A DNA stretch of 64,000 nucleotides from the NCBI GenBank assembly GCA_963977105.1, contig CAXBNI010000002.1, positions 44,675 to 108,674 of the forward strand, given 5' to 3'. Below are positions 7,148 to 44,441 of this stretch, one piece after another. Each line of letters starts with the position of its first letter. The first letter of the stretch is position 1. The stretch comes from an uncultured Micavibrio sp. Lineage in GTDB: Bacteria > Pseudomonadota > Alphaproteobacteria > Micavibrionales > Micavibrionaceae. The position numbers and the translations under genes were made by a program. The notes under the pieces are model-generated. The model did no database searches and was not told the origin of the DNA. It saw nothing but the letters and a program-made list of their open reading frames with translations.

Positions 7148-8378
7148 TTTCTGTTTCCTCCGTCAAGAAAGACGTCCCAAATGGCATTGCGCCTAAGCCT
7201 AAATATGTCGAAAGGCTTGTGCCAATATCTGCGAAGGTGTCACGTTTGCCGATTGAACCGGGTTTTACTTTTGGCCCAAAGGCAATAACCGGCACATGTT
7301 CACGTGTGTGGTCAGAGCCCGGCCATGTTGGGTCGCAGCCATGATCCGCCGTGATCACCACGACATCATCAGGGCGCAATGCCTGCTGCAAGCGTGGTAA
7401 GTTACGGTCAAATTCTTCTAATGCGGCGGCATAGCCAACCACATCGCGGCGGTGACCATAGAGCATATCAAAATCAACAAAATTGGCAAAAACGATTGTG
7501 TTATCATTGGCCTTATCAACATGTTCCATCATCACATCAAAAATCTGTGCGTTGCCATGCGCTTTGTATTTCTGGGTAATGCCTTGATGGGCAAAAATAT
7601 CCGCGATTTTACCAATTGAAATTACTTCGCCGCCAGCTTCCGCCATTTTATCTAGTAATGTTGGCGCAGGGGGCAGAACTGATAAATCACGGCGGTTGCC
7701 TGTGCGCTCAAAATTGCCTGTTGTTTCGCCAAGGAATGGGCGCGCAATTACGCGGCCAATATTATATTCATCAACCAATTTACGCGCCACGGCACAAATT
7801 TCATACAGGCGCTCTAGGCCAAAATGCTTTTCATGCGCAGCAATTTGTAGCACAGAATCCGCTGAAGTATAAACAATCGGTTTACCTGTTTTAATATGTT
7901 CTTCGCCATATTGGTCAAGAATGACTGTGCCCGATGCATGGCAATTGCCCAAAATGCCCGGCAAGTCACATTCTTTAACCAATGCATCAACAAGCGCATC
8001 AGGAAAACTTGGTACTTCTTTAGGGAAGTAACCCCAATCAAACTGCACAGGAACGCCCGCCATTTCCCAGTGACCGCTTGGTGTGTCTTTACCCTTGCTT
8101 AGCTCCGCTGCAAAGCCATATTTACCGGTAATTTCGCCCTCTGCCTTGGCAACTTTAATCTCGTGACCTGCGGATTCTTCTGCCGCAAGACCAAGGCCTA
8201 AACGCATCATGTTCGGGATGTTTAATGCGCCAGAGCGCACGCCGTCTTTATCGGCCTTACCATCGGCGCAATGCTGCGCAATATGGCCAAATGTATTTGC
8301 CCCAATATCGCCGAAATCAGCGGCATCCGCCGTTTCCCCAACACCAAAAGAATCCAAAACAACAATAATCGCGCGCAA
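7137..8378 (-). CDS. deoB: phosphopentomutase
   Basis: 413 aa. [15 protein letters not shown]... at the N terminus and [10 protein letters not shown] are typical of DeoB metal-dependent phosphopentomutases. Confidence 0.95.
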
Positions 8379-10367: not shown

Positions 10368-11642
10368 ATGAAACTCTATATCCCAGAAACAATAAAAACA
10401 TATGGCTTAATCGCCGTGATTATTATTTGCTCTTTTTGGTTTGCAACGCGCTTTATTGAACCCACTCCGCCCAAAGAATTTACCATCGCAGCAGGCGCAG
10501 TGGATGGTGATTATTACCGTTATGCCAAGCTCTATCAAAAAAAACTCGCGGCGCAGGGCATGACACTGCATATTTTACAAACCGCAGGCTCATTTGAAAA
10601 CGTCAGGCTATTAGAAGAAGGCCAAGCTGATCTTGCTTTCATCCAAAGCGGCCTAGCAAGTGAGGAAAATGCGCAATCTATTGAAGCTCTGAGTGGCTTA
10701 TATTTTGAACCTATCTGGGTTTTCATGCGCAATGACGTGTCTAGTGGCAAAGACTTACAGAGGCTCAAAAACGCAAAAATTGCAATTGGCGCAGCGGGCA
10801 GCGGTACCAATGAAACAGCACGACAGCTTTTAGAATTAAACAACATGATGGAAAGCACCACCTTGTTTGAGCTCTCTGGTCAAGCTGCCGTAGATGACCT
10901 GAAAGCTGGCAATGTTCAAGCCGCTATATTTGTCGCCAAGCCCAGCGCCGTCATCATTCAAAATTTAATGCATGATACAACGCTGCATTTACTCTCGTTC
11001 AGCCGTGCAAATGGTTATACAAGTACCTACCCGTTCTTATCAAAAGTGACGCTTAGTGAAGGCGTGATTGATATGGCTGAGAACATTCCTGCGCACGATG
11101 TAACCTTACTTAGCCCCATCGCGCAGCTTACCGCCCATAAGGACTTTCATAGTGCGCTGAAAACATTACTGGTCAGCACCAGCATGTCCATCCATAAAGA
11201 TGCGACATTACTATCAGCCAAAGGCCGCTTCCCGACGCTCGATTTTATTGATATGCCCGTTGCAAGCGAAGCGAAACGCTATTTTAAATATGGCCCGAAC
11301 TTCTTGCAGCGCTTCTTACCGTTCTGGCTTGCCGATATGATTAGCCGTATGGTTGTTATGCTTATCCCTCTACTCGGCGTCATGTTGCCGTTAATCAAAA
11401 TGGCTTCGCCAACCTATCGCTGGCGCACACGCTCTAAAATCTACAAATGGTACAAAAGCCTAAAAAGAATGGAAGACACTGCGATTACTGGTGATACAGA
11501 TATTAGCGAAGCTCTGTCCGCACTGTCCAAAATTGACAATGAAGTCAAAAAGACCATTGTCCCATTATCATACGCTGACGAGCTGTATAATCTGCGCCTC
11601 CACATTCAAATGATTAAAGATCATTTAGAGCGCCTGAAATAA
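10368..11642 (+). CDS. TAXI-family (TRAP-associated) solute-binding protein with a C-terminal membrane anchor
   Basis: The ORF track starts at TTG 10362; ATG at 10368 is preferred. AAGAVDGDYYRYAKLY...LQTAGSFENVRLLEEGQADLAFIQSG matches the TAXI/NMT1-like signature. There is an N-terminal TM, a C-terminal TM (MISRMVVMLIPLLGVMLPLI) and a charged tail. Confidence 0.75.
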   Translation: MKLYIPETIKTYGLIAVIIICSFWFATRFIEPTPPKEFTIAAGAVDGDYYRYAKLYQKKLAAQGMTLHILQTAGSFENVRLLEEGQADLAFIQSGLASEENAQSIEALSGLYFEPIWVFMRNDVSSGKDLQRLKNAKIAIGAAGSGTNETARQLLELNNMMESTTLFELSGQAAVDDLKAGNVQAAIFVAKPSAVIIQNLMHDTTLHLLSFSRANGYTSTYPFLSKVTLSEGVIDMAENIPAHDVTLLSPIAQLTAHKDFHSALKTLLVSTSMSIHKDATLLSAKGRFPTLDFIDMPVASEAKRYFKYGPNFLQRFLPFWLADMISRMVVMLIPLLGVMLPLIKMASPTYRWRTRSKIYKWYKSLKRMEDTAITGDTDISEALSALSKIDNEVKKTIVPLSYADELYNLRLHIQMIKDHLERLK

Positions 11643-12220
11643 TGGCCTTAAAGCACAGCACCTATCATGACGAAAACGTCGTCGGCCTTAACATGGAAAA
11701 TGCAAGTCTCACGCATAGAGAGTTTTCAGGCTGCGTGTTTCAGGACTGCGATTTTACAGGCGCAAACTTCGCCGACACGCGCTTTATTGACTGTTTTTTT
11801 CAACGTTGCAACTTATCAAACATCAATGTTGAAAACGCGAACATGCAGGATGTGACCTTTGAGGAGAGCAAGTTAGCTGGGATTATTTTTTCGGCGCTAA
11901 ATACTTTTTTGATCGACGTAGCATTTGAAAACTGCAAGATAATCGCCTGTGACTTTACAGACCTTAATCTGAGGAACACAAAATTTACAGCCTGCACAGT
12001 TCATGAAACGGACTTCGTCAATACTAGCCTTGCCGGTGCAAGCTTCGCCAAAGCAGACCTCCAAGGCACGAATTTCAGAAATGTGAATTTAGAAAATTGT
12101 AACTTCGCCGCCGCAACGCGTTACTATATTGACCCGACGCAAAACAGAATGAAACGCGCAAAATTCTCAGTGCCTGAAGTACTCAGCCTCTTATCTGTGT
12201 TTCAAATTGAGATTGATTAG
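11642..12220 (+). CDS. pentapeptide-repeat protein
   Basis: 192 aa of tandem A(D/N)LxX-type pentapeptides (ANFADTRFIDCFFQRCNLSNINVENANMQDVTF...). Its ATG overlaps the TAXI stop codon (TAATG). Confidence 0.85.
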   Translation: MALKHSTYHDENVVGLNMENASLTHREFSGCVFQDCDFTGANFADTRFIDCFFQRCNLSNINVENANMQDVTFEESKLAGIIFSALNTFLIDVAFENCKIIACDFTDLNLRNTKFTACTVHETDFVNTSLAGASFAKADLQGTNFRNVNLENCNFAAATRYYIDPTQNRMKRAKFSVPEVLSLLSVFQIEID

Positions 12221-12228
12221 GCGCAGGG

Positions 12229-12516
12229 CTATGTAATCAGGCATTTTTGCAAGGCATCTCTGTTACGCAGCTTCTTTTGTGCTCCGCCATCTTCTTGCAA
12301 ATAGACTTCACCGGATTCATTGATCGTGATCGTACAGCCATTAGGCAGCACCACCGCATGATCATTAAAGCCTTCTTTAATTGTCGTCACTTTACCTTCA
12401 GTTTTTGCCTTAGCCGGATTGTGGCGGCGTATACCGCCGATACCACCTTCGCCGCCCCACATGACATCATGGCAAAGCTGCGTTTCAATGCGGTGATTAT
12501 AATCTAAGATCTGCAT
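12229..12516 (-). CDS. small paralog 1 of 4 (ILDYN / LPNGC family, unknown function)
   Basis: 95 aa. MQILDYN at the N terminus and a C-terminal module GFNDHAVVLPNGCTITINESGEVYLQE...KKLRNRD. RBS AAGGA lies in the 13-nt spacer. Confidence 0.75.
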   Translation of the reverse strand: MQILDYNHRIETQLCHDVMWGGEGGIGGIRRHNPAKAKTEGKVTTIKEGFNDHAVVLPNGCTITINESGEVYLQEDGGAQKKLRNRDALQKCLIT

Positions 12517-12529
12517 AGCTATAGCGTCC

Positions 12530-12835
12530 TTATTTTACTAATAATTTTTGTAGGCTGTCTTTATTGCGGATTTTTTTGGCCTGACCGCCATCTTCACGCA
12601 TATAAACTTCACCGCTTTCCTTGACTTCGATGACGCAGCCATTGGGCAATTTCAAGCTATGGGTGTTGAAGCCATCTTTACATGTCGTTTCATTGCCTGA
12701 TGTTTGCACCTTGCTCTGTGGCGGTGATGAACGGCCGCGTGTACCACCAGAGTAATGGGTACAAACCCCATCATCAATCATAATTTCATGACAATGTCGC
12801 GCTGTTATGTTTTGGTTATAATCTAATATCTTCAT
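12530..12835 (-). CDS. small paralog 2 of 4 (ILDYN / LPNGC family)
   Basis: 101 aa. MKILDYN..., GFNTHSLKLPNGCVIEVKESGEVYMRE...KKIRNKD. A 13-nt spacer separates it from the next gene. Confidence 0.75.
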   Translation of the reverse strand: MKILDYNQNITARHCHEIMIDDGVCTHYSGGTRGRSSPPQSKVQTSGNETTCKDGFNTHSLKLPNGCVIEVKESGEVYMREDGGQAKKIRNKDSLQKLLVK

Positions 12836-12848
12836 TCTTAATTCCCTG

Positions 12849-13112
12849 CTAATTCACTAAATGCTGTTGAATCTTGTCCGCGTTACGCAGTTTTTTAAAC
12901 GGAGCATCTTTTTCTGCTATATGCACTTCACCATTTTCATTCATGCGCACTGTGCAGCCGTTTGGCAAGGTTACAGCATATGTATTAAACCCGTCTCTCA
13001 ATGACGTTTGCGCATCCTGCTTCTTCCCTACGCACGCCCCATCACAACGCTGCCGGCGACGCTTCTGACAATGCATCGTTTCTACAAAAGTATTATAATC
13101 TAAAATATGCAT
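12849..13112 (-). CDS. small paralog 3 of 4 (ILDYN / LPNGC family)
   Basis: 87 aa. MHILDYN..., GFNTYAVTLPNGCTVRMNENGEVHIAE...KKLRNAD. The central region is basic and Cys-rich. Confidence 0.75.
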   Translation of the reverse strand: MHILDYNTFVETMHCQKRRRQRCDGACVGKKQDAQTSLRDGFNTYAVTLPNGCTVRMNENGEVHIAEKDAPFKKLRNADKIQQHLVN

Positions 13113-13125
13113 AATCGACCTTGCC

Positions 13126-13494
13126 CTATTTCACCAATAAACACTGTACGCTGTCTTTATTGCGTAACTTTTTAGGCGCGGCGTTAGCTTCTTGCAAAAA
13201 GACCTCACCGTTTTCCTGCACATTTATAACGCAGCCATTAGGCAGCTCTATACTATGCGTATTAAAGCCTGCTTTTAAGCTTGTCTTCTCCGCGCCGCTT
13301 TGCACGAGTTTCTTCTTAGCTTCGACCTGTTGTATACGAGCTTTCACATTGTCCACATTGCCAGCGCAGCCTACGCGTTCACCATGCCCTGCGCCCAAAG
13401 CGCTTGAAATATTGATTCTATCCTGTTCATAATCACCAGGCATCATCTGCACCATCGCCGTGTTTATTTTCTCGTTATAATCGAGTATATGCAT
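13126..13494 (-). CDS. small paralog 4 of 4 (ILDYN / LPNGC family), first gene of the array
   Basis: 122 aa. MHILDYN..., GFNTHSIELPNGCVINVQENGEVFLQE...KKLRNKD. It has the longest central insert (~51 aa). Confidence 0.75.
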   Translation of the reverse strand: MHILDYNEKINTAMVQMMPGDYEQDRINISSALGAGHGERVGCAGNVDNVKARIQQVEAKKKLVQSGAEKTSLKAGFNTHSIELPNGCVINVQENGEVFLQEANAAPKKLRNKDSVQCLLVK

Positions 13495-13615
13495 GGCTCG
13501 TCCCCTTATTATTTATTTTCCGTATTAATGATTAAAGCACGGCGTGCATTATGTCAATAAATTTGTTGTTTTCTTGACCAATCAAACCGTCACAACCACA
13601 GATAAGAGTTTTTAC

Positions 13616-13644
13616 TTGAAATTATATCGTGCGCTATGTATACA
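13616..13644 (+). promoter_or_regulatory. candidate sigma70-type promoter for ndk
   Basis: TTGAAA-N17-TATACA, 43 nt upstream of the ndk ATG. The -10 lies within the 10-bp palindrome ATGTATACAT. Confidence 0.3.
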
Positions 13645-13686
13645 TCGCGCATAACATATTCACCCAATTAATGAGAGTGCACAATC

Positions 13687-14174: not shown

Positions 14175-14738
14175 TTATTTCAGCTCAATACCCTGCTTAT
14201 CATAAACTTGCTTAATACCAAGCAAGCTCTTTTTTAGCTCTGCATTGTTCATATTATCTCTAAAATACACTAAGCTTACCACCTCACCTGCGCCATCCTG
14301 AGCAAAACAAGAATCCAATCGAGACTTCACGGCGTCACCAGATGATTCATAAATATCAACAAACTTCTGCGCTGTGCGTGATAAGTAATTAATATGCGGG
14401 TATAGGAATGAATTTACAGCGCGTTCACCGTCCACGTCTTCACCATATTCATTGCGCCACTCAGGCCCAAAATCCTTTGCAATAACTTTCGCAAGATCAT
14501 AAAAGCTCTGAATGTCATGCCGGCCCTCTAAAGCATTAGCTAAAGGAACGATCTCAGGCTGCAACGTTAAGGTCATACGTGTAAAACGAGACGTATATTC
14601 TCTATTCTCATTTAGTGCGCCCTCAAAACTTTGCTTGTCATCTGCATTCATTATCGTATGTGCAAATGTGTTACAAAGCTTTTGGCAATGAAACTTTGCG
14701 TAGCGCGCATAAGCACGAAATGTTGTTTTTAAAGACAT
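14175..14738 (-). CDS. hypothetical protein
   Basis: The ORF track extends to 14864 and would overlap the upstream methyltransferase. The internal ATG at 14738 is preceded by GGAGGG and is preferred. No homolog recognised. Confidence 0.55.
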   Translation of the reverse strand: MSLKTTFRAYARYAKFHCQKLCNTFAHTIMNADDKQSFEGALNENREYTSRFTRMTLTLQPEIVPLANALEGRHDIQSFYDLAKVIAKDFGPEWRNEYGEDVDGERAVNSFLYPHINYLSRTAQKFVDIYESSGDAVKSRLDSCFAQDGAGEVVSLVYFRDNMNNAELKKSLLGIKQVYDKQGIELK

Positions 14739-14809
14739 TGAACCCTCCATAAGCTTGAAGAGACAATAACAGAGCGTGAGAGTTATGTCAAATAATATGG
14801 GGTGAGGGC

Positions 14810-15562
14810 TTACTTCGCCTTCTGCAAAACCCAAATATTCTCGCAAGGAAAATGCTGCGCCCAATCAAGCGGTGCGAAATCAAAGCTGCTCATCGCATCT
14901 TCAGGCGGTTGCAATTCAATTAAATCAATGATGCTAAACCCTGCATCACGGAAAAGCCGTACCCACTCGCCATAGCTATACTGAAAATAGACAAGCTTAT
15001 CTTCAACGAAGCGGTTAAGGTCAAAATAGCTTTTGCACAGCGCCTTGCCGACGCTCGCCGCCTTGTCATCATAACAAATTTCATGCAAAGGGGATTGAAT
15101 GTTAAAGACAAACAGGCCGTTTTTCTTTAACACGCGGTGGACTTCGGATAGCGTCGGCGCAGTGGGCGCATAGGTCATTGCGCCGTGATCACAAAACACC
15201 ATATCAAAGCTGCGTTTTTTCGCGGGGATTTTATCTGCGCTCGCATGGAGCAACGGGAAATCATGCCCCGCCTCAGCCATTAAACGCTCTGCATGTTCTA
15301 ACTGCTTTTCAGAATTATCCAGTGCAGTAGGGTAACCGCCCATTTCAGCAATCGCAATGCTTAATTGAGCCGCACCGCTGCCAAGTTCTAACACCTGCTG
15401 ACCGCGCACATCGCCTAATGCGCCAATATCGCGCTCTGGCAAAGACCATACGCCCCAGACAAAATCCTTGCGATTAAGCTGCTGCGCATGTTTTCCCTGA
15501 TATTCATCAGAAAAATTGTCCCAGAATTTACGATTTGTTGCCGCGTCTTTAGATAATTTCAT
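14810..15562 (-). CDS. class I SAM-dependent methyltransferase
   Basis: 250 aa with motif I VLELGSGAAQLS and a following acidic residue pattern. Confidence 0.85.
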   Translation of the reverse strand: MKLSKDAATNRKFWDNFSDEYQGKHAQQLNRKDFVWGVWSLPERDIGALGDVRGQQVLELGSGAAQLSIAIAEMGGYPTALDNSEKQLEHAERLMAEAGHDFPLLHASADKIPAKKRSFDMVFCDHGAMTYAPTAPTLSEVHRVLKKNGLFVFNIQSPLHEICYDDKAASVGKALCKSYFDLNRFVEDKLVYFQYSYGEWVRLFRDAGFSIIDLIELQPPEDAMSSFDFAPLDWAQHFPCENIWVLQKAK

Positions 15563-36939: not shown

Positions 36940-39900
36940 CTAGAACTTATAAGCCGCCTTAACAACGCCCGAATGCGCCGCGTATTCAGACTTGTATTCA
37001 AAATCATACCCGCCCGTGAATTCCCAGCTATTGGTATTATAAACCGTTGCGCCGAAGCCAACGTTAAACGTGCTGTTTACAGGGTCAGAACCTTCAGTTC
37101 TGAATGTTGTTCCACCACCAATAAACTTAGATGACGCCGAAACTTTATCACCGATCACATCATTGCGGTAACCAACATGAACTGCAGGTTCAAAAATGCC
37201 ACCATTGCTCAGCTCTTTCATCCAAGTCGCTTCTAAAGCAACCCCGAGTTCAAAGACATCTAAATCGCCAGGGTCAACATCAAGGTTCGCACCGCCTGCA
37301 CCTGATTCTGTATAAGCATCTTGGTCAACATGAATATAGTTAATCATTGCTGTCGGCGTTAACACGACTTCGTTAAAGGCTTTTAAGTGGTAATCATTAC
37401 CGAGTTCAAAACGGGCAACATATTGGTTGCCAGTTGTATCGCCCTCTGCTGTCAAGCCAGATGTCCCTGCGACGTTGTGACGCTTGCTTTCAACATCGTT
37501 AAACACGTAGCCAAGCATCACATCTAAGAACGCAGTATCAGCCAAATCGTAATTCGCATAAGCGGCAACTTGCCAGCTGCTAATCTCTGTTTCGGTTTTA
37601 TTTGCGTTGTCAGAATCAACATTTGTCACCGCGTAACTGCCCGCGAAGCCTAATGTCATGCCTTCTAATTTATCCGCTGTATCAATACCGGCTGCGAGAC
37701 CCAACGAGTTTGAGTCATAACCAGCAACATTCTCACGCTCGTCTTGCGTCGCTGTGTTACCAAAAGCCTGCCCCCAGACTTTCGTGCCATAGAGGCCATT
37801 ACCCGCATACATGCCAGTGCCGACTTTATCGTTACGAACCTCTGCAAGGCGAGTCCCGATCACGTTCAAAGACTGATTTGTGACACTCAACGCTGAAACA
37901 ACAGCGCCGCCATCAACTGTCGGAATTGACGATTCTAATATGTCGTTCACGGCTTGTTGTGAAGTCGCCGTGTTTAAATTCTGTTGCAACTGCGCGATTT
38001 GCGTATTGGCAGATGTACCAATTGCATCAAGTACAGTACCCACAGCGTTGTTATTAGTATTCGTCGCTGCAGCCGCTTTTGAACCGATGGTTGCGACAAC
38101 AACAAGGTCAGAATCACTCGTTGTATCCTGCGCAAATGACACAAGATAACTGTTATCTAGAATTGTCGTGGTTAGATCCGCAACGCCAGCGCCGCCAGCG
38201 CCGTCAATCAATGTGAAGGATTGTGCGTTCGCAATTGCATCACCCGTCACAACATCAATCGATAATATTGCCGTCGCATCAACGCTTGCATTGCCTGTTG
38301 CCGTCATCTGGCCTGCGGCTGTCGCGCCTTTGATGTCAAACATCAAGGTCTGCCCTGCATCGACGTCAATTGTGCCTCCTACATTCAGTGTACCGCTGCC
38401 AATATCTGTGGTTTTAGCCGCTTCAAAATTACCGCCCGCACTCACAATGCTGCTTGAGCCGAGAATCTGGAACGATTTAAGCTCCGTTCCATCCGTACCA
38501 AAAGCATCAATACTGCCTGACCCTGCAAGGACGAAGCTACCTGTATCGGCGGTAGATGTAATAATCGCGCCTGTGATGTCTTTTGTATCAGCAAGACGTA
38601 ACGTACCATCTGCATCAAAATCAACTGCGCCTGTGATGTTGCCATTTGACTGCACTGTGCCCGCACCCGCGACTTTGATGTCTGTTGCACGGATATTACC
38701 GGCCAATGTCACCGTTTCACCGCTCCCGCCATTAAAGTTGATCGCCGCGAGGCTGTTTGTTGTGATGCCCAAAGTACCGCTTACTGTAGACGAGCCAGCA
38801 AAGTTCACTGTACCGTTTGCGCCCGCTGTACTGTCAATAGAGCCTGTAAGGTTTGCATTATCAGCAAAGTTAATTGTACCTGCGTTATTGGCGAAGTTAA
38901 TATCGTTTGTTGTGGTCACGTTACCTGCGAAATTCACAGTCGCCGCGCCGCCAAAGTTAATATCATCAACATTCACCGTAGAACCAAAGCTAGATGTGCC
39001 AACGCCGTTAATGGTAATTAAGTTCAAGCTTTTGGTTGCGCCTACACTGCCTGAGACAATAGAAGAGCCTGCAATCGTGATGTTACCTGCGCCGTCGGCT
39101 GCGGTGATATTATCAACGCTGCCTGTGATGTCCGCGCCATCAGCAAGCAAAGCTGCCGCATTTGCGCCAAACTGGACATTACCCGTCACGTCCTGTGCAA
39201 AGTCTAGGTTACCTGCAGCCGTTGCGGTGATTGTTGTTGCGGCGACTGTACCGTTAAAGTCAAACGTACCAGTACCGTTATAAGTAATCGCGCCAATAGA
39301 GTTTGTTGCGCCAACATTGCCTGAAATAAGGGTCGTGCCTGCGCCTGTGCCGCTGATTGTGCCAACGCCCGCAGAGCCTGACGTATTATCAACCGCGCCC
39401 GTGACGCCGAAAGTGTTACCCAGAGCAAGCGTACCTGCGCCAGTAAGGTTCACTGCGCCCGTCACTGCGCCACCTGTTGTTAATGTGGTTGCCGCGCCAA
39501 TATTTACGTTTGTCGCCTGTAGCGTCGCGCCAGTGGTTAAGCCTGTGCCTTCACCTGAGAGTGTGACGTTGTCTAAGACCGTCACATTCCCCCAAGCTGC
39601 GTCTGTTGTAAGTGTATTGCCGCCAGATACGATAACGTTCGATGTATCGGTAGCTGCGCCCTGCACTGTGCCTGATGCCGCGATTGCGCCGCCTGCAGTG
39701 TCAAATGTCACAGTGTATGTGTCCGCCGTGCCGCCGCCATCGCCAATGACGATACCCGAAGCATTATCAACGCCGACATCGCCTTGGAATGTAACAGCAG
39801 AGCCTGTGCCGTCATTCGAGATTGTAATTTGGTTTAAGTCGTTTGTATCACCGATTGCGCCTGCAAAAGTTGCGCCTGCGCCTGTGATCGCGATGTCACC

Positions 39901-40581
39901 ATCCCCTGCAACGCCGCCGTCAATTGTCCCTGTGAGCGTTTGTAACGTGCCGCCATCAAGCGTTAGCGTTGCCGTCGAAACCGCACCTGTTAGGGTGGTT
40001 GAGGCCGCTGTGATATTACCGCTGACGGAGACATTCACATTGTTATTCGCATTCACGCCATCAGCCGTAATGGCGAGCGCGCCTGTGCCTAAATTGATGT
40101 TGCCATTGAGGTCAACGGTTAATACGTCGCCCGTTGCGTCAGTATCTTCGCCTGTGATAGTGAAGTTCATGGATGTAAACGCACCAACGGAAACATCACC
40201 AGATATAGTGACCGCTTCGGCGGCATCATCATTAAGCGCATCATCAATTGTAAATGTCAGGGCATCTGCGCCTGCGACCACGGCGGCGACGGTCGCGGTG
40301 CCATCACCAATAATGTCTGTATCCTGCACCGTTACGGTTGCATTGCTGTTCACGCGCAGGTCGCGGCTTTGCGTTGCTTCGCCAGCAGCGGCGGTGCCGT
40401 TTGTGTTGGTCTGCCAATCAAAAGGAGAGCTTGCGAGTTCGTCCGCATCAAACGTACCGCTGCTATCTGCATCGACGCTAATTTCATCCGCCGCGTAGGC
40501 AGGTGAGATAAATAATGGCGTCGCGCCGACTGCAACAATTGCAGTGCCGGCTAATAATAGCTTTTTAATATCTAATTTCAT
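36940..40581 (-). CDS. autotransporter outer-membrane protein 1 (long T/G/A/N-rich passenger plus C-terminal beta-barrel)
   Basis: The start is set at MKLDIKKLLLAGTAIVAVGATPLFISPAYA (signal peptide); the ORF track extends to 40674. The ~900-aa passenger is made of degenerate G-T/A-x repeats. The C-terminal ~280 aa have alternating beta-strands and end in ...AAYKF. Confidence 0.88.
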   Translation of the reverse strand: MKLDIKKLLLAGTAIVAVGATPLFISPAYAADEISVDADSSGTFDADELASSPFDWQTNTNGTAAAGEATQSRDLRVNSNATVTVQDTDIIGDGTATVAAVVAGADALTFTIDDALNDDAAEAVTISGDVSVGAFTSMNFTITGEDTDATGDVLTVDLNGNINLGTGALAITADGVNANNNVNVSVSGNITAASTTLTGAVSTATLTLDGGTLQTLTGTIDGGVAGDGDIAITGAGATFAGAIGDTNDLNQITISNDGTGSAVTFQGDVGVDNASGIVIGDGGGTADTYTVTFDTAGGAIAASGTVQGAATDTSNVIVSGGNTLTTDAAWGNVTVLDNVTLSGEGTGLTTGATLQATNVNIGAATTLTTGGAVTGAVNLTGAGTLALGNTFGVTGAVDNTSGSAGVGTISGTGAGTTLISGNVGATNSIGAITYNGTGTFDFNGTVAATTITATAAGNLDFAQDVTGNVQFGANAAALLADGADITGSVDNITAADGAGNITIAGSSIVSGSVGATKSLNLITINGVGTSSFGSTVNVDDINFGGAATVNFAGNVTTTNDINFANNAGTINFADNANLTGSIDSTAGANGTVNFAGSSTVSGTLGITTNSLAAINFNGGSGETVTLAGNIRATDIKVAGAGTVQSNGNITGAVDFDADGTLRLADTKDITGAIITSTADTGSFVLAGSGSIDAFGTDGTELKSFQILGSSSIVSAGGNFEAAKTTDIGSGTLNVGGTIDVDAGQTLMFDIKGATAAGQMTATGNASVDATAILSIDVVTGDAIANAQSFTLIDGAGGAGVADLTTTILDNSYLVSFAQDTTSDSDLVVVATIGSKAAAATNTNNNAVGTVLDAIGTSANTQIAQLQQNLNTATSQQAVNDILESSIPTVDGGAVVSALSVTNQSLNVIGTRLAEVRNDKVGTGMYAGNGLYGTKVWGQAFGNTATQDERENVAGYDSNSLGLAAGIDTADKLEGMTLGFAGSYAVTNVDSDNANKTETEISSWQVAAYANYDLADTAFLDVMLGYVFNDVESKRHNVAGTSGLTAEGDTTGNQYVARFELGNDYHLKAFNEVVLTPTAMINYIHVDQDAYTESGAGGANLDVDPGDLDVFELGVALEATWMKELSNGGIFEPAVHVGYRNDVIGDKVSASSKFIGGGTTFRTEGSDPVNSTFNVGFGATVYNTNSWEFTGGYDFEYKSEYAAHSGVVKAAYKF

Positions 40582-40743
40582 TGAAATAAATCTCCAGAAG
40601 ATGAGGTAAAAACAGAATACGGGAAGAAACACAAAACGGGCGAACGCCCAAATACAGGTTAAATCATAACACATTTACAAAGTTTTAAAAGAGCCCGCGT
40701 GCAAAAAACTGCGCACGGATGAAAGCCAAAGATAGCCGCGCAT

Positions 40744-40804: not shown

Positions 40805-43800
40805 CTAGAACTTGTAAGAAGCTTTAACCATACCAGCATGTGCATCGTAATCAGACTTGAATTCGAAGTTGTAACCGGCGCTTAGTGTCCAGTTTGTGTC
40901 AGTGATGTATTTAACACCAACACCAGCATCGAAAGTTGTCTGTGCAGGATCGAAGCCTTTAACTTTGAAAGCAGAACCACCGCCAGCAAATGTGTTAGAT
41001 GCTTCGAACTCGTCGCCGATAAGGTCATGACGAACACCTAGGCCGATAGATGGCATTAGGTGTGTGCCGTTTGCATTCTGGATATCCCATTGTGCATCAA
41101 CGCCAAGACCAATTTCGAACAAGCTCAGAGAGTCTGCGTCAACTGTAAGGTTTGCACCGCCAGCACCTGTTTCTGTGTAGCTATCTGCAGAGTAGTGCAT
41201 ATAGTCAGCAGAAACTTTAGGTGTAAGAACGAGCGTACCGTGACCTGTGTGGTAATCACGACCAACTGCTAGGCCAGCTACGAATGCGTCTGCATTGTAT
41301 GAACCTTTAGCATTTAGTGCAGCAATACCGCCTGGGTTACGTGTAGTGTCATTATCAGACCAGATATAACCAAGTTGACCAGAAACGAATACTGTCTCGT
41401 TCACGTCGTAATCACCGTAAAGTGAAATTTGGTAGCTATCTACTTCTGTTTTCGCGTTGCTGATGGCGTCAGAGTCAACGTCCGTATCAGCGTAAGCGAA
41501 TGACATACCGATAGTCGTGTCTTGGCCAAGCTCTTCTGTGTCAAAACCAATTGCGAAACCGTAAGTATCAGCATCGTAACCAGAAACACCATCACGCTTG
41601 TCTTGTTGAGCTTGCTGACCGAAACCTTCGATCCAGCCGTTCAAGCCGTTCATGACTTGACCAGCATTCATGCCAGTTTCGCCAGAGCGTAGTGATGCAA
41701 GACGGTCATTGTTGATAGCAGACGTGCTACCCGCAACTTGAATACCCGCAACAACAGCGCCGCCAGAAACGTCAGAAGCAGCCGCTTCGATTACGTTATT
41801 AACGTCACCTTGCGTGCTTTTAGACTGAAGTTCAGACTGTAACAAGTTGATTTGGGTGTTCGTAGATGCCGCAAGCGTCGTTAGAAGCTGGTTACCAGTT
41901 GCAACATAGCCACTGTTAACACTTGTGCTTTCAACAGAGTTAGCTTGAGTAACAGTAACATCGAAGTCATTGCCGTTTGCTGTAAGAGCAAAACCGTACA
42001 AATATGAGTTATCTGTTACTGTAGCCGCTGTTGTTGCCGCGCCAGTGTTACCACCAACAACAGAAGCAATAACTTCAGCCGCTAGAGGTTGAGAGCCTGA
42101 TTCAACAACAAAGTTTACAGTATCGTTAGAAAGGTCAACTGCACCGCCTGCTGTGATATCAACAGTACCAATTGTTGTTGTACCCGCTGTACGTTTAACA
42201 CCAAGGTTAAATGTACCTGCAGCCGCATCAGCAGTATAACCGTTGCCGCCAGCAAGTGTAACGCCAGAGTTAACTGTAACTGTGCCATCATTATCAATAG
42301 CGCCTGTACCAATTGTTGCGTTAGCAGCAAATGTTGCTGCTGCATTAGCAGAAACATTTAATGCACCAACAGCTGTAGTACCAATAACACCGTTAAATGT
42401 AACGCTTGATGTTGTTGTGCCATTACCAATAGTAAGAACACCATCATTTGCGAGTGCACCATCAATTGTACCAGAGACAACTTGTGCAGATGTACCTAGG
42501 AACTGAAGAACGTCAGCATCATCAAGTGTGATTGCATCAACATAAAGGTTACCAGTTGTAGTAACTGTCTGTGCATTACCTGCACCAGTCGCTAGAACAC
42601 CGATCGCCTTCGTGCTAGTACCAACATTACCTGTAAATGCTACTGTACCTGCTGCGCTATCCGCGATTGAGATCAAACCTTGGCCATCTGTTGCTGTCGT
42701 AATCGCACCAGAAACTGTCAAAGTATTCGTTTGATCATCTAGGATAAGACCATCATCAACACCGCTGTCATTAATAACAACTGCGCCAGACAATGTTTCG
42801 TTACCAGTAGTCGCATCAACAGTCAAAGTCACGTTATCAGCAATATCAACTGAGTTCGCAACGGAGCCTGTAACAGTAGCATCAGCATCAACGTCAAAAG
42901 TACCCGCACCTGTAATGTTACCAGTAATGTCACCTGTACCACCAGCAGATATTTTCAATGTACCTGTGTTCGCAATGTTACCAATTAGATTACCTGCGCC
43001 AGTAATATTAACTGTACCCGCGTTAGTAATCGCGCCATTAATATCGCCTGCACCTTGGTCAACTGTTGAACCAGAAGCCACAGTAACAGCCGCAGAAATT
43101 GCCGCGTCTGAATCTAATGTTGTGCTACCAGTAACAGAAACTGTATCGATGTTAGCTGTTGCTACGCCAGTTAGTGTGATTGTATCACCGCCTGTGAAGA
43201 CAAGAGCTACAGTATCACCAGCGCCGCCACCAGCAATTGTCGCAGCGATTGTTTGTGTCGTACCATTAAATGTAGCTGTTTTTGTGTCAGTGCCAGTGTT
43301 ATCACCGAGTACAATTGTACCCGCGCCCCAGTCACCGTTAAATGTAACAGCTTGGTCAATACCTGTGCCGTTCATTGTCACTGTACCAGTGCTTGTGCTG
43401 TCACCAGAGAATGTAACACCTGAAGCATGTGTGTTTGAAACTGTAATGCTGCCATTACCAGAAACAACACCAGTTACTGTTTGAGCTGTCGTTCCGTTAA
43501 GAACCAATGTTCCTAAGCCGTCAGGGCCGTCAGCCAAAACAATGCCCGTCGCTGTAATGTTGCCAGCAACATTTAACGTAGCATCATCGCCCGCATCGCT
43601 TGAATTTGAAGCGTTAGTACCACCTGTTACTGTCACGTTGCCAGTAGTTGTAATTGAGCCTGTTACTGTAACTGCTGTAGCATCTGCGTTAGCACTTACT
43701 GTGTTCTCAGTTGCTTGTACTACAAAGTTACCAGAACCCAACGTCGCTGAGCCAACAGTAATCGCAGTAGAAACGTTATCACCTGCGTTTGAATCAAATG

Positions 43801-44053
43801 TTACGTTACCGTCTGGTGTTGCGTTTGTATCTGTAATCGCGCCAATAGCAGTTACGTCACTTTCGTCAATTGCAAGGTTAAAACCATCCAAGTTAACATT
43901 GTCAGCTGCTGTTGGTGCATTAACAGGTACTGTTGTGCCCCATGTTGAATTACCTGCGAGGGTCAAATCAGCTGCTTGTGCTGTACCTGCCGTTGCACCC
44001 ACTGCAACGATAGCTGTACCAGCCAATAGTAGTTTTTTAATATCAAGTTTCAT
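40805..44053 (-). CDS. autotransporter outer-membrane protein 2
   Basis: The start is set at MKLDIKKLLLAGTAIVAVGATAGTAQA; the ORF track extends to 44128. It has a repetitive T/G/A/V/N-rich passenger and a C-terminal barrel ending ...KASYKF, collinear with autotransporter 1. Confidence 0.88.
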   Translation of the reverse strand: MKLDIKKLLLAGTAIVAVGATAGTAQAADLTLAGNSTWGTTVPVNAPTAADNVNLDGFNLAIDESDVTAIGAITDTNATPDGNVTFDSNAGDNVSTAITVGSATLGSGNFVVQATENTVSANADATAVTVTGSITTTGNVTVTGGTNASNSSDAGDDATLNVAGNITATGIVLADGPDGLGTLVLNGTTAQTVTGVVSGNGSITVSNTHASGVTFSGDSTSTGTVTMNGTGIDQAVTFNGDWGAGTIVLGDNTGTDTKTATFNGTTQTIAATIAGGGAGDTVALVFTGGDTITLTGVATANIDTVSVTGSTTLDSDAAISAAVTVASGSTVDQGAGDINGAITNAGTVNITGAGNLIGNIANTGTLKISAGGTGDITGNITGAGTFDVDADATVTGSVANSVDIADNVTLTVDATTGNETLSGAVVINDSGVDDGLILDDQTNTLTVSGAITTATDGQGLISIADSAAGTVAFTGNVGTSTKAIGVLATGAGNAQTVTTTGNLYVDAITLDDADVLQFLGTSAQVVSGTIDGALANDGVLTIGNGTTTSSVTFNGVIGTTAVGALNVSANAAATFAANATIGTGAIDNDGTVTVNSGVTLAGGNGYTADAAAGTFNLGVKRTAGTTTIGTVDITAGGAVDLSNDTVNFVVESGSQPLAAEVIASVVGGNTGAATTAATVTDNSYLYGFALTANGNDFDVTVTQANSVESTSVNSGYVATGNQLLTTLAASTNTQINLLQSELQSKSTQGDVNNVIEAAASDVSGGAVVAGIQVAGSTSAINNDRLASLRSGETGMNAGQVMNGLNGWIEGFGQQAQQDKRDGVSGYDADTYGFAIGFDTEELGQDTTIGMSFAYADTDVDSDAISNAKTEVDSYQISLYGDYDVNETVFVSGQLGYIWSDNDTTRNPGGIAALNAKGSYNADAFVAGLAVGRDYHTGHGTLVLTPKVSADYMHYSADSYTETGAGGANLTVDADSLSLFEIGLGVDAQWDIQNANGTHLMPSIGLGVRHDLIGDEFEASNTFAGGGSAFKVKGFDPAQTTFDAGVGVKYITDTNWTLSAGYNFEFKSDYDAHAGMVKASYKF

Positions 44054-44441
44054 TCTGAGAGTTCTCCTTTGGTCAAAACGAATAAACAAAAATTCTTTAT
44101 ATTGGATAGATAAAGCATTTACCAACATAGACAGTCATACACAAGTTTTGTAAGTCGTGGTGCTGAGCCCTTATATATACTGCAAAGAACAGATATAACG
44201 AATCAGGACACGAATCGACCTACAGCAATTGTAGGGAAACTTATACCAGTGGGTAGATAGGCGGTAAACCCCTGATAGAGGAAAATTTGTAACTTTTTCA
44301 ACACATAAACATCAGAAAACCCTAATTTACAGGGCTTAAAGTTTAGTTTATAGGGCGCCGCCCTATACCCTCGCGTGTAGTCCGGACGTGGCTTTGAGTC
44401 GATTTTCAGTGGGCTGATTTGATGAGAAAAGTACCGTAAAC

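Follow-up and report, generated by a model that had tools for sequence, protein, structure and literature searches.

A lineage-restricted family of small tandem paralogs with an unclassified C-terminal module in uncultured marine Micavibrio-like bacteria

A 64,000-nucleotide stretch of the genome of an uncultured Micavibrio sp. (contig CAXBNI010000002.1, positions 44,675 to 108,674; hereafter the window) carries at 12229-13494 an array of four co-oriented minus-strand open reading frames (ORFs) that occupies 1266 nt and encodes small paralogous proteins of a family absent from current classifications. Each protein joins a short conserved N-terminal motif to a paralog-specific centre and a conserved C-terminal domain of about 52 amino acids (aa), which we call the C-module. 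The genes are real, old, vertically inherited and native to the chromosome. As to what they do, we propose, with a probability of roughly 0.35, that the paralogs are co-translated and serve as subunits or adaptors without redundancy, associating by way of an amphipathic beta-sheet formed by the C-module, and that the variable linkers give each its specificity.

Organisation and distribution of the arrays

The first-pass annotation of this DNA had placed here four minus-strand ORFs of 122, 87, 101 and 95 aa, separated by 13-nt gaps that each contain a ribosome-binding site, and both the coordinates and the Shine-Dalgarno sequences are confirmed (Table 1). It had also read the four as one polycistronic unit. 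Given the short spacers with their Shine-Dalgarno sequences, and the presence of a TTGACA promoter box 5' of gene 1 only, the array does have a polycistronic look, and its genes very probably constitute one operon. The TTGACA box, which the conserved sequence GTGCTTTA follows, is invariant across the window and the related loci L001, L007, L015 and L017, which suggests that the array may be transcribed from this candidate promoter. No special meaning attaches to the exact 13-nt spacing, which is peculiar to the window species; in related arrays the spacers measure 8-30 nt, and it is only the short spacing that is kept.

The distribution of the family is narrow. A word-indexed search through 5.8 billion clusters recovered 20 proteins, and when 1.84 billion representatives were scanned exhaustively with HMMER there were 27 matches, five of them giant Rib/SprB-like repeat proteins that were drawn in by many weak repeats; P0026, P0030, P0035 and P0036 were accordingly rejected as homologs of the whole module, their scores being sums over weak hairpin repeats. 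The annotation is 'hypothetical' in every source. Among the 185,579 species representatives of GTDB the sole match is a metagenome-assembled genome (MAG), Micavibrio sp. UBA2705 (L001), whose flanks share 77-84% DNA identity with the window, and the remaining carriers are marine metagenome contigs (Tara, JGI and ENA). The family occurs only in a few lineages of uncultured, Micavibrio-like marine bacteria; Micavibrio itself is a predatory genus. Within the 64-kb window, a search with a hidden Markov model (HMM) of the family detected no paralogs beyond the four of the array.

Seven independent arrays were recovered, with the same ORF structure in each, which together with the low substitution ratios between orthologs (given below) and the conserved -35 box marks the ORFs as real genes. 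Those that adjoin ndk comprise four genes in the window (the array of L011-L014), four in L001 and L015, six in L007 and L016, three in L017 and two in L018. In the last of these, an unrelated 143-aa ORF (7319-7750), which has neither the N-motif nor the C-module, lies between the two family members. The four genes of L004 are found between an M23 peptidase gene and fmt, and the four of L020 are likewise upstream of fmt. The short forms of the family, to which all the window genes belong, are thus multi-copy, with 2-6 per array, at every locus with enough flanking sequence, L019 being a 1-kb contig that is too short to judge. In the closest relatives both the divergent linkage of the array to ndk and the order of its genes are retained. 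The array has native base composition and sits in a core-genome context, and tblastn searches of phage and plasmid collections gave no match to the family; a mobile origin was rejected on the strength of that native composition and of the lack of a phage or plasmid match.

Protein anatomy, paralog types and selection

Alignment of the four window proteins gives 27 invariant columns, which comprise M1, I3-N7 (ILDYN), GFN, LPNGC, E..GEV, KK.RN.D and Q, and which bear out the shared N-motif and C-terminal module described at first pass. Two further statements made there hold in part. The LPNGC block, called invariant, is so in the window, but elsewhere its cysteine is replaced by V, A, T, I or S. 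Similarly, the centre, said to have no detectable similarity, is indeed only 9-26% identical between window paralogs, where its length ranges from 19 to 54 aa and the C-module is 46-63% identical, but across the family a pattern emerges: in 19 of 31 members a first GG is found at residues 21-24, where it is preceded by an acidic/aromatic stretch and usually followed by an aromatic-Ser pair and then by a basic/Pro-rich segment. GG is missing entirely from type 1 and from window gene 2.

The proteins can accordingly be divided into an N-terminal segment of about 20 aa (MxILDYNxxIE..C..), which often closes with this GG, a paralog-specific linker rich in Gly, Ser, Pro and basic residues, and the C-module. 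They are hydrophilic and near-neutral (isoelectric point 5-9, net charge -6 to +4) and contain 3-4% cysteine, and no signal peptide or membrane segment was found in the family sequences. Nucleic-acid binding is unsupported, given the near-neutral charge. Two AlphaFold2 runs, with 27-28 sequences, predict a low-confidence helix at residues 3-20, a disordered linker with a predicted local distance difference test score (pLDDT) below 50, and a six-stranded antiparallel beta-meander at residues 37-83 (pLDDT ~80) followed by a short C-terminal helix. The predicted turns of the meander coincide with the conserved NG, xG and GG, and alternating strand residues (L/L, C/I/V, V/M and I), as read from the sequence, would give the sheet one hydrophobic face. 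It had been suggested that the two termini might pack into one domain with the centre as a loop; the models speak against this, as the linker is disordered and the N-terminus is not confidently packed against the C-module.

The C-module is an autonomous unit, because it is fused to another N-domain in a set of long forms and because P0020 and P0033 contain an additional internal copy of it. The long forms are single-copy proteins of 158-166 aa in which the C-module follows an unrelated N-domain of about 100 aa (MAKYLNLTCTN...W..PQ.G.FLLKC...) that has no relative in Pfam, NCBIfam or the PDB. They are encoded at 8001-8501 of L002 and at 8001-8495 of L008 and L009 (P0027, P0039, P0037, P0041 and P0043-45). 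In L002 a distance of 1.5 kb separates the long form from type IVB secretion genes that resemble dotB/dotC/dotD, and the L008 long form adjoins an HNH nuclease gene. One of the long forms may share a genome with a type-1 short-form ortholog, since for each the longest carrying contig on record is 762,186 bp. The idea that the short N-motif might be what remains of the N-domain of the long forms (ILDYN compared with VLDWN...LLKC) was rejected at an hhalign probability of 0.3%. An apparent case of the N-motif without the C-module, the third gene of L004, was withdrawn when its L020 ortholog proved to have a degenerate GF...PDG...TGE module.

Synonymous sites between the window paralogs are saturated, with a proportion of differing sites (pS) of 0.6-0.99, so the paralogs are old duplicates; this agrees with the first-pass view of ancient copies under purifying selection, as does the low ratio of non-synonymous to synonymous substitution rates (dN/dS) between orthologs. 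When the genes of the window (W), L001 (A) and L007 (B) were compared in an identity matrix, they fell into the ortholog groups W1/A1/B1, W3/A3/B5, W4/A4/B6, W2/B3 and A2/B2, with conserved order. Such clean groups and the kept order fit an ancestral array of at least six genes with differential loss. The three closest genomes all have types 1, 3 and 4, in the same order. The gene 1 orthologs A1 and B1 are each 75% identical to it, and the C-module of gene 3 is 98% identical to that of its L001 ortholog, with a dN/dS of 0.02. The ortholog of gene 2 is B3 of the six-gene L007 array (58% identical), and its type, 2b, is absent from L001, where type 2a is kept.

Across orthologs, dN/dS is 0.02-0.31 for the C-module and 0.17-0.63 for the centre, and never exceeds 1 in computable pairs. 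The ortholog centres of types 1, 3 and 4 remain 56-76% identical at a synonymous divergence (dS) of ~0.5-1.2, and in type 2b identity falls as low as 16%. The centre is a linker specific to each type, which evolves fast under relaxed purifying selection, and not a diversifying display loop.

Relation to known families and possible functions

The C-module belongs to no described family, as the first-pass annotation had surmised. When the four proteins and distant members were scanned against Pfam, NCBIfam, PADLOC and PHROG, nothing exceeded the cut-off, the best match in a profile search of the PDB (E 0.27) was to titin immunoglobulin domains and is noise, and Foldseek searches of two models against the PDB, and of one against BFVD, gave no match at E<0.1. 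Families of beta-hairpin repeats with a DG or NG turn share the strand-turn-strand pattern h-x-h-P-[ND]-G-x-x-h-x-h-x-x-x-G-x-h, and several match below threshold: atypical Rib (PF18938; best 15 bits against a threshold of 27, E 0.017-0.021, 4 of 27 members), the Tcp10_C/CPAP G-box (PF07202; best 20.9 bits against 36, E 2.9e-4, 3 of 27 members, the best match lying only on the extra internal repeat of P0020), DUF6799 (PF20606; 14.1 bits against 26.8, E 0.042 for gene 4, 2 of 27 members) and CopK (NF033793; 14.3 bits against 123, E 0.03). Their members are repeats of surface adhesins, a centriole protein of eukaryotes and a copper protein of the periplasm. Unlike them, the proteins described here have no signal peptide, anchor or Met-rich copper site; in particular, the Met-rich Cu(I) ligands and signal peptide of CopK are absent, there being no N-terminal hydrophobic signal and no conserved methionines.

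The top Foldseek analogues of both models are polo-box domains, with a root-mean-square deviation (rmsd) of 2.2-2.7 A over 42-44 columns and a probability of 0.9-0.98. The polo box (beta6-alpha, as in the PLK1 polo-box domain and PLK4 PB3) resembles the predicted C-module in having a six-stranded meander and a short helix. Polo boxes are domains of eukaryotic kinases that serve as modules for protein-protein interaction and dimerisation, and their phosphopeptide-binding residues cannot be mapped on the C-module. The likeness is an analogy at most, and it would lend some backing to the fold class and to a role in protein interaction.

Based on these observations, we propose the following model. 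With one promoter and tight spacing, the paralogs would be made together and in similar amounts. They would act as non-redundant subunits of a hetero-oligomer, or as adaptors with a common partner; we favour such co-made, non-redundant subunits because of the 8-30-nt spacing, the single promoter, the arrays of 2-6 copies and the retention of types 1, 3 and 4 in order, with the ancient divergence of the paralogs, the autonomy of the C-module and its predicted fold also in favour. The C-module would be the interaction or oligomerisation module, in the manner of a polo-box or G-box-type beta-sheet. Since one face of the sheet is hydrophobic, it should need a partner surface, and that face may be covered by the protein's own N-terminal helix or by the sheet of another subunit. 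Each subunit would owe its specificity to its type-specific linker. Co-expression, oligomerisation and the cellular role are all inferred.

Several observations weigh against this model. Some genomes dispense with types 2a, 2b or x and L018 retains two copies only, so that a fixed stoichiometric complex is not required. Paralogs co-expressed in tandem are just as characteristic of families of exported peptides. The models on which the fold is based have a mean pLDDT of 64-66, and the predicted N-terminal helix, besides its low confidence, is not consistently amphipathic. The polo-box matches have E values of 0.3-0.5, which are not significant, with a TM-score of ~0.36 and an identity of 12-18%. 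Lastly, the co-occurrence of two cysteines described below, which would favour the model in that it hints at contact between the N-terminal segment and the sheet, has a Fisher p of 0.002 that ignores phylogeny.

The first and main alternative is that the genes encode exported peptides or effectors akin to bacteriocins or microcins, with a C39-peptidase ATP-binding cassette (ABC) exporter encoded elsewhere that cleaves a leader of about 20 aa at a double glycine, and with the conserved C-module as the active or receptor-binding part. We regard this as unlikely, although there are parallels with arrays of double-glycine-leader bacteriocins or class II microcins. Both have small, co-oriented genes in tandem, a conserved N-terminus of about 20 aa, here conserved from Met1 itself, that often ends in GG, a Gly-rich continuation and cysteines, and in the present family the first GG, where it stands at residues 21-24, comes straight after the predicted helix. 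In the distant L004 array a C39 ABC transporter gene and an outer-membrane factor gene lie 5-8 kb upstream, and the nearest named relative is a MAG of a predatory genus. However, the most conserved part of these proteins is the folded 52-aa C-terminal domain, and type 1 and window gene 2 lack the GG altogether. The canonical leader, taken as [LIVMFA]xx[LIVM]xxx[ED][LIVMF]xx[LIVM]xG[GAS] with hydrophobic residues at -4, -7 and -12 and an acidic residue at -8, occurs in 0 of 31 members, and leader HMMs of NCBIfam and Pfam (for example TIGR01847) gave no match at E<=10. In the window species no C39-ABC exporter, membrane fusion protein, accessory or immunity gene lies within +/-10 kb, and none of the large window ORFs scanned encodes a C39-peptidase ABC exporter. 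The L004 transporter is on the opposite strand, with clpS, clpA and the M23 peptidase gene in between. The core-genome context, strong purifying selection, stable order and lack of a phage or plasmid match also fit poorly with such peptides. A more specific version, to which we give slightly less credit, holds that marine Micavibrio-like predators export these proteins as effectors: a non-canonical leader of about 22 aa (MxILDYNxxIE...GG) would be cut at GG, and the linker and beta-meander, in some cases stabilised by disulfides, would act on prey or competitors in a paralog-specific way.

The cysteines have led us to consider a second alternative, that these are cytoplasmic metal- or redox-binding proteins in which Cys/His clusters bind Zn, Cu or Fe, or act as a redox switch that clamps the N-terminal segment. 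Type 3 has HCH at residues 14-16 along with Cys25, Cys52 and Cys67, and four cysteines are kept in its orthologs. Moreover, Cys15/16 covaries with the LPNGC cysteine, which is present in 15 of 15 members that have Cys15/16 as against 7 of 14 that lack it, and there are weak echoes of CopK (E 0.03 in NCBIfam; Foldseek rmsd of 1.3 A over 29 columns). The cysteine pattern hints that the N-terminal segment may touch the sheet, with a metal or a disulfide as the link, but it does not extend to the whole family: type 2a and the L004 members have 0-2 cysteines, many members have odd counts, and no set of ligands is common to the family. As CopK is matched at 14 bits instead of the 123 required, and its Met ligands and signal peptide are wanting, we think a metal or redox function improbable.

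Of the three ideas raised by the first-pass annotation, a small secreted-factor family is possible, and two fare worse. One was a constant scaffold displaying a hypervariable loop, or a diversity-generating array, with packed termini and a diversifying centre. It is true that the centres of the window paralogs cannot be aligned and vary in length. However, the centres are conserved between orthologs, with dN/dS below 1 in every computable pair. L012, which is 99.3% identical to the window, differs from it by 3 single-nucleotide polymorphisms in the 1266-nt array against 140 in 19.8 kb, which is below the flanking rate. No template/variable repeats were found, the sole direct repeats being diverged paralogous coding blocks of 61-70% identity, and no reverse transcriptase lies nearby, so the features of a diversity-generating retroelement are lacking; the centre is modelled as disordered and not as a loop closed by packed termini. 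This reading is largely refuted and we consider it very improbable. The other, an orphan immunity array left over from a polymorphic toxin system, is just as hard to credit, since its only support is that these are tandem small paralogs of no known family with a weak Foldseek echo of a contact-dependent inhibition (CDI) toxin-immunity complex (chain 8ey4_A, E 0.45-0.62), whereas none of the seven neighbourhoods contains a toxin, Rhs, CdiA, type VI secretion, type VII effector or other delivery gene, PADLOC gives no match, and the native composition, orthology and order that are stable across species and an apparent promoter of its own are unlike the fast turnover of immunity islands. The first-pass remark that no toxin, reverse transcriptase or maturation enzyme adjoins the array is correct to +/-10 kb in the window.

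Neighbouring features and significance

Table 1. Positions of the array elements and of other features in the window
Feature	Position	Strand	Description
Gene 1 (type 1)	13126-13494	-	122 aa; MHILDYN N-motif, 54-aa centre, 52-aa C-module
Gene 2 (type 2b)	12849-13112	-	87 aa; 19-aa Arg/Cys-rich centre
Gene 3 (type 3)	12530-12835	-	101 aa; cysteines 15, 25, 52 and 67 kept among orthologs
Gene 4 (type 4)	12229-12516	-	95 aa; Gly-rich centre
Spacer, genes 1/2	13113-13125	-	13 nt; Shine-Dalgarno AAGG
Spacer, genes 2/3	12836-12848	-	13 nt; Shine-Dalgarno AGGGA
Spacer, genes 3/4	12517-12529	-	13 nt; Shine-Dalgarno (TA)AGGAC, overlapping the stop codon
Shine-Dalgarno of gene 1	13501-13507	-	AAGGGGA, 5' of gene 1
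Sigma-70-like promoter (putative function)	13528-13557	-	-35 TTGACA at 13557-13552; conserved GTGCTTTA at 13540-13533 as -10 region
Pentapeptide-repeat gene	11642-12220	+	PF13599/PF00805; convergent with gene 4
Gap between convergent stops	12221-12228		8 nt
Inverted repeat, two arms	12188-12202 and 13594-13608		15 nt, 14/15 complementary
Conserved stretch 5' of ndk	13590-13686		~100 nt, on the ndk side of the ndk/array gap
Overlapping palindrome	13623-13658		22 nt; centre ATGTATACAT
ORF on the far side of ndk	14175-14864	-	229 aa from a TTG start; no Pfam match
Autotransporter-like ORF	36940-40674	-	1244 aa
Autotransporter-like ORF	40805-44128	-	1107 aa

At its 3' end the array meets a pentapeptide-repeat gene, and the 8 nt between the convergent stops are too few to hold an intergenic terminator. 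In L007 the corresponding position has no pentapeptide gene. At the other end, the stretch just 5' of ndk is almost 100% identical in the window, L001, L007 and L015, whereas the coding DNA that flanks it is only 77-86% identical. It contains the palindrome and, on the plus strand, a promoter-like pair TTGAAA-17-TATACA; its RNA folding is unexceptional (z = -1.3) and it has no Rfam match. The stretch may serve ndk as an operator, promoter or leader. The inverted repeat flanks the array together with its promoter, and its 12-mer core occurs at two sites only in the window, where 0.11 are expected. As a boundary of the array it is probably a chance feature, for the downstream arm is absent from L001, L007 and even L012.

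The ORF on the far side of ndk corresponds to a gene called at 187-191 aa in the window species. L007, L011, L017 and L018 have a gene of 158-187 aa in the equivalent position beside ndk, and the ORF is a further conserved hypothetical of the lineage. Elsewhere in the window, the two adjacent autotransporter-like ORFs have C-terminal autotransporter beta-domains (PF03797, E 7e-47 and 4e-55) and passenger regions without a Pfam match.

This lineage-restricted sequence family is new, in that it falls outside every Pfam, NCBIfam, PHROG, PADLOC and PDB family. By new we mean unclassified; the array shows no new mechanism, and metagenomes contain very many such orphan families. With these 'dark matter' families it shares a narrow distribution, lack of annotation, purifying selection and conserved synteny, and it is set apart from them by its obligate tandem paralogs and by their modular construction from N-motif, linker and C-module. 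The family is very rare, yet it is strongly conserved, multi-copy and equipped with a candidate promoter, and it occurs in poorly known uncultured marine bacteria that are akin to epibiotic predators. Should the paralogs be exported, they would represent a new class of effector or bacteriocin with a non-canonical leader. If instead they hetero-oligomerise, as we propose, the arrays would offer a compact model of the way in which multi-subunit assemblies arise by tandem duplication and the divergence of linkers.

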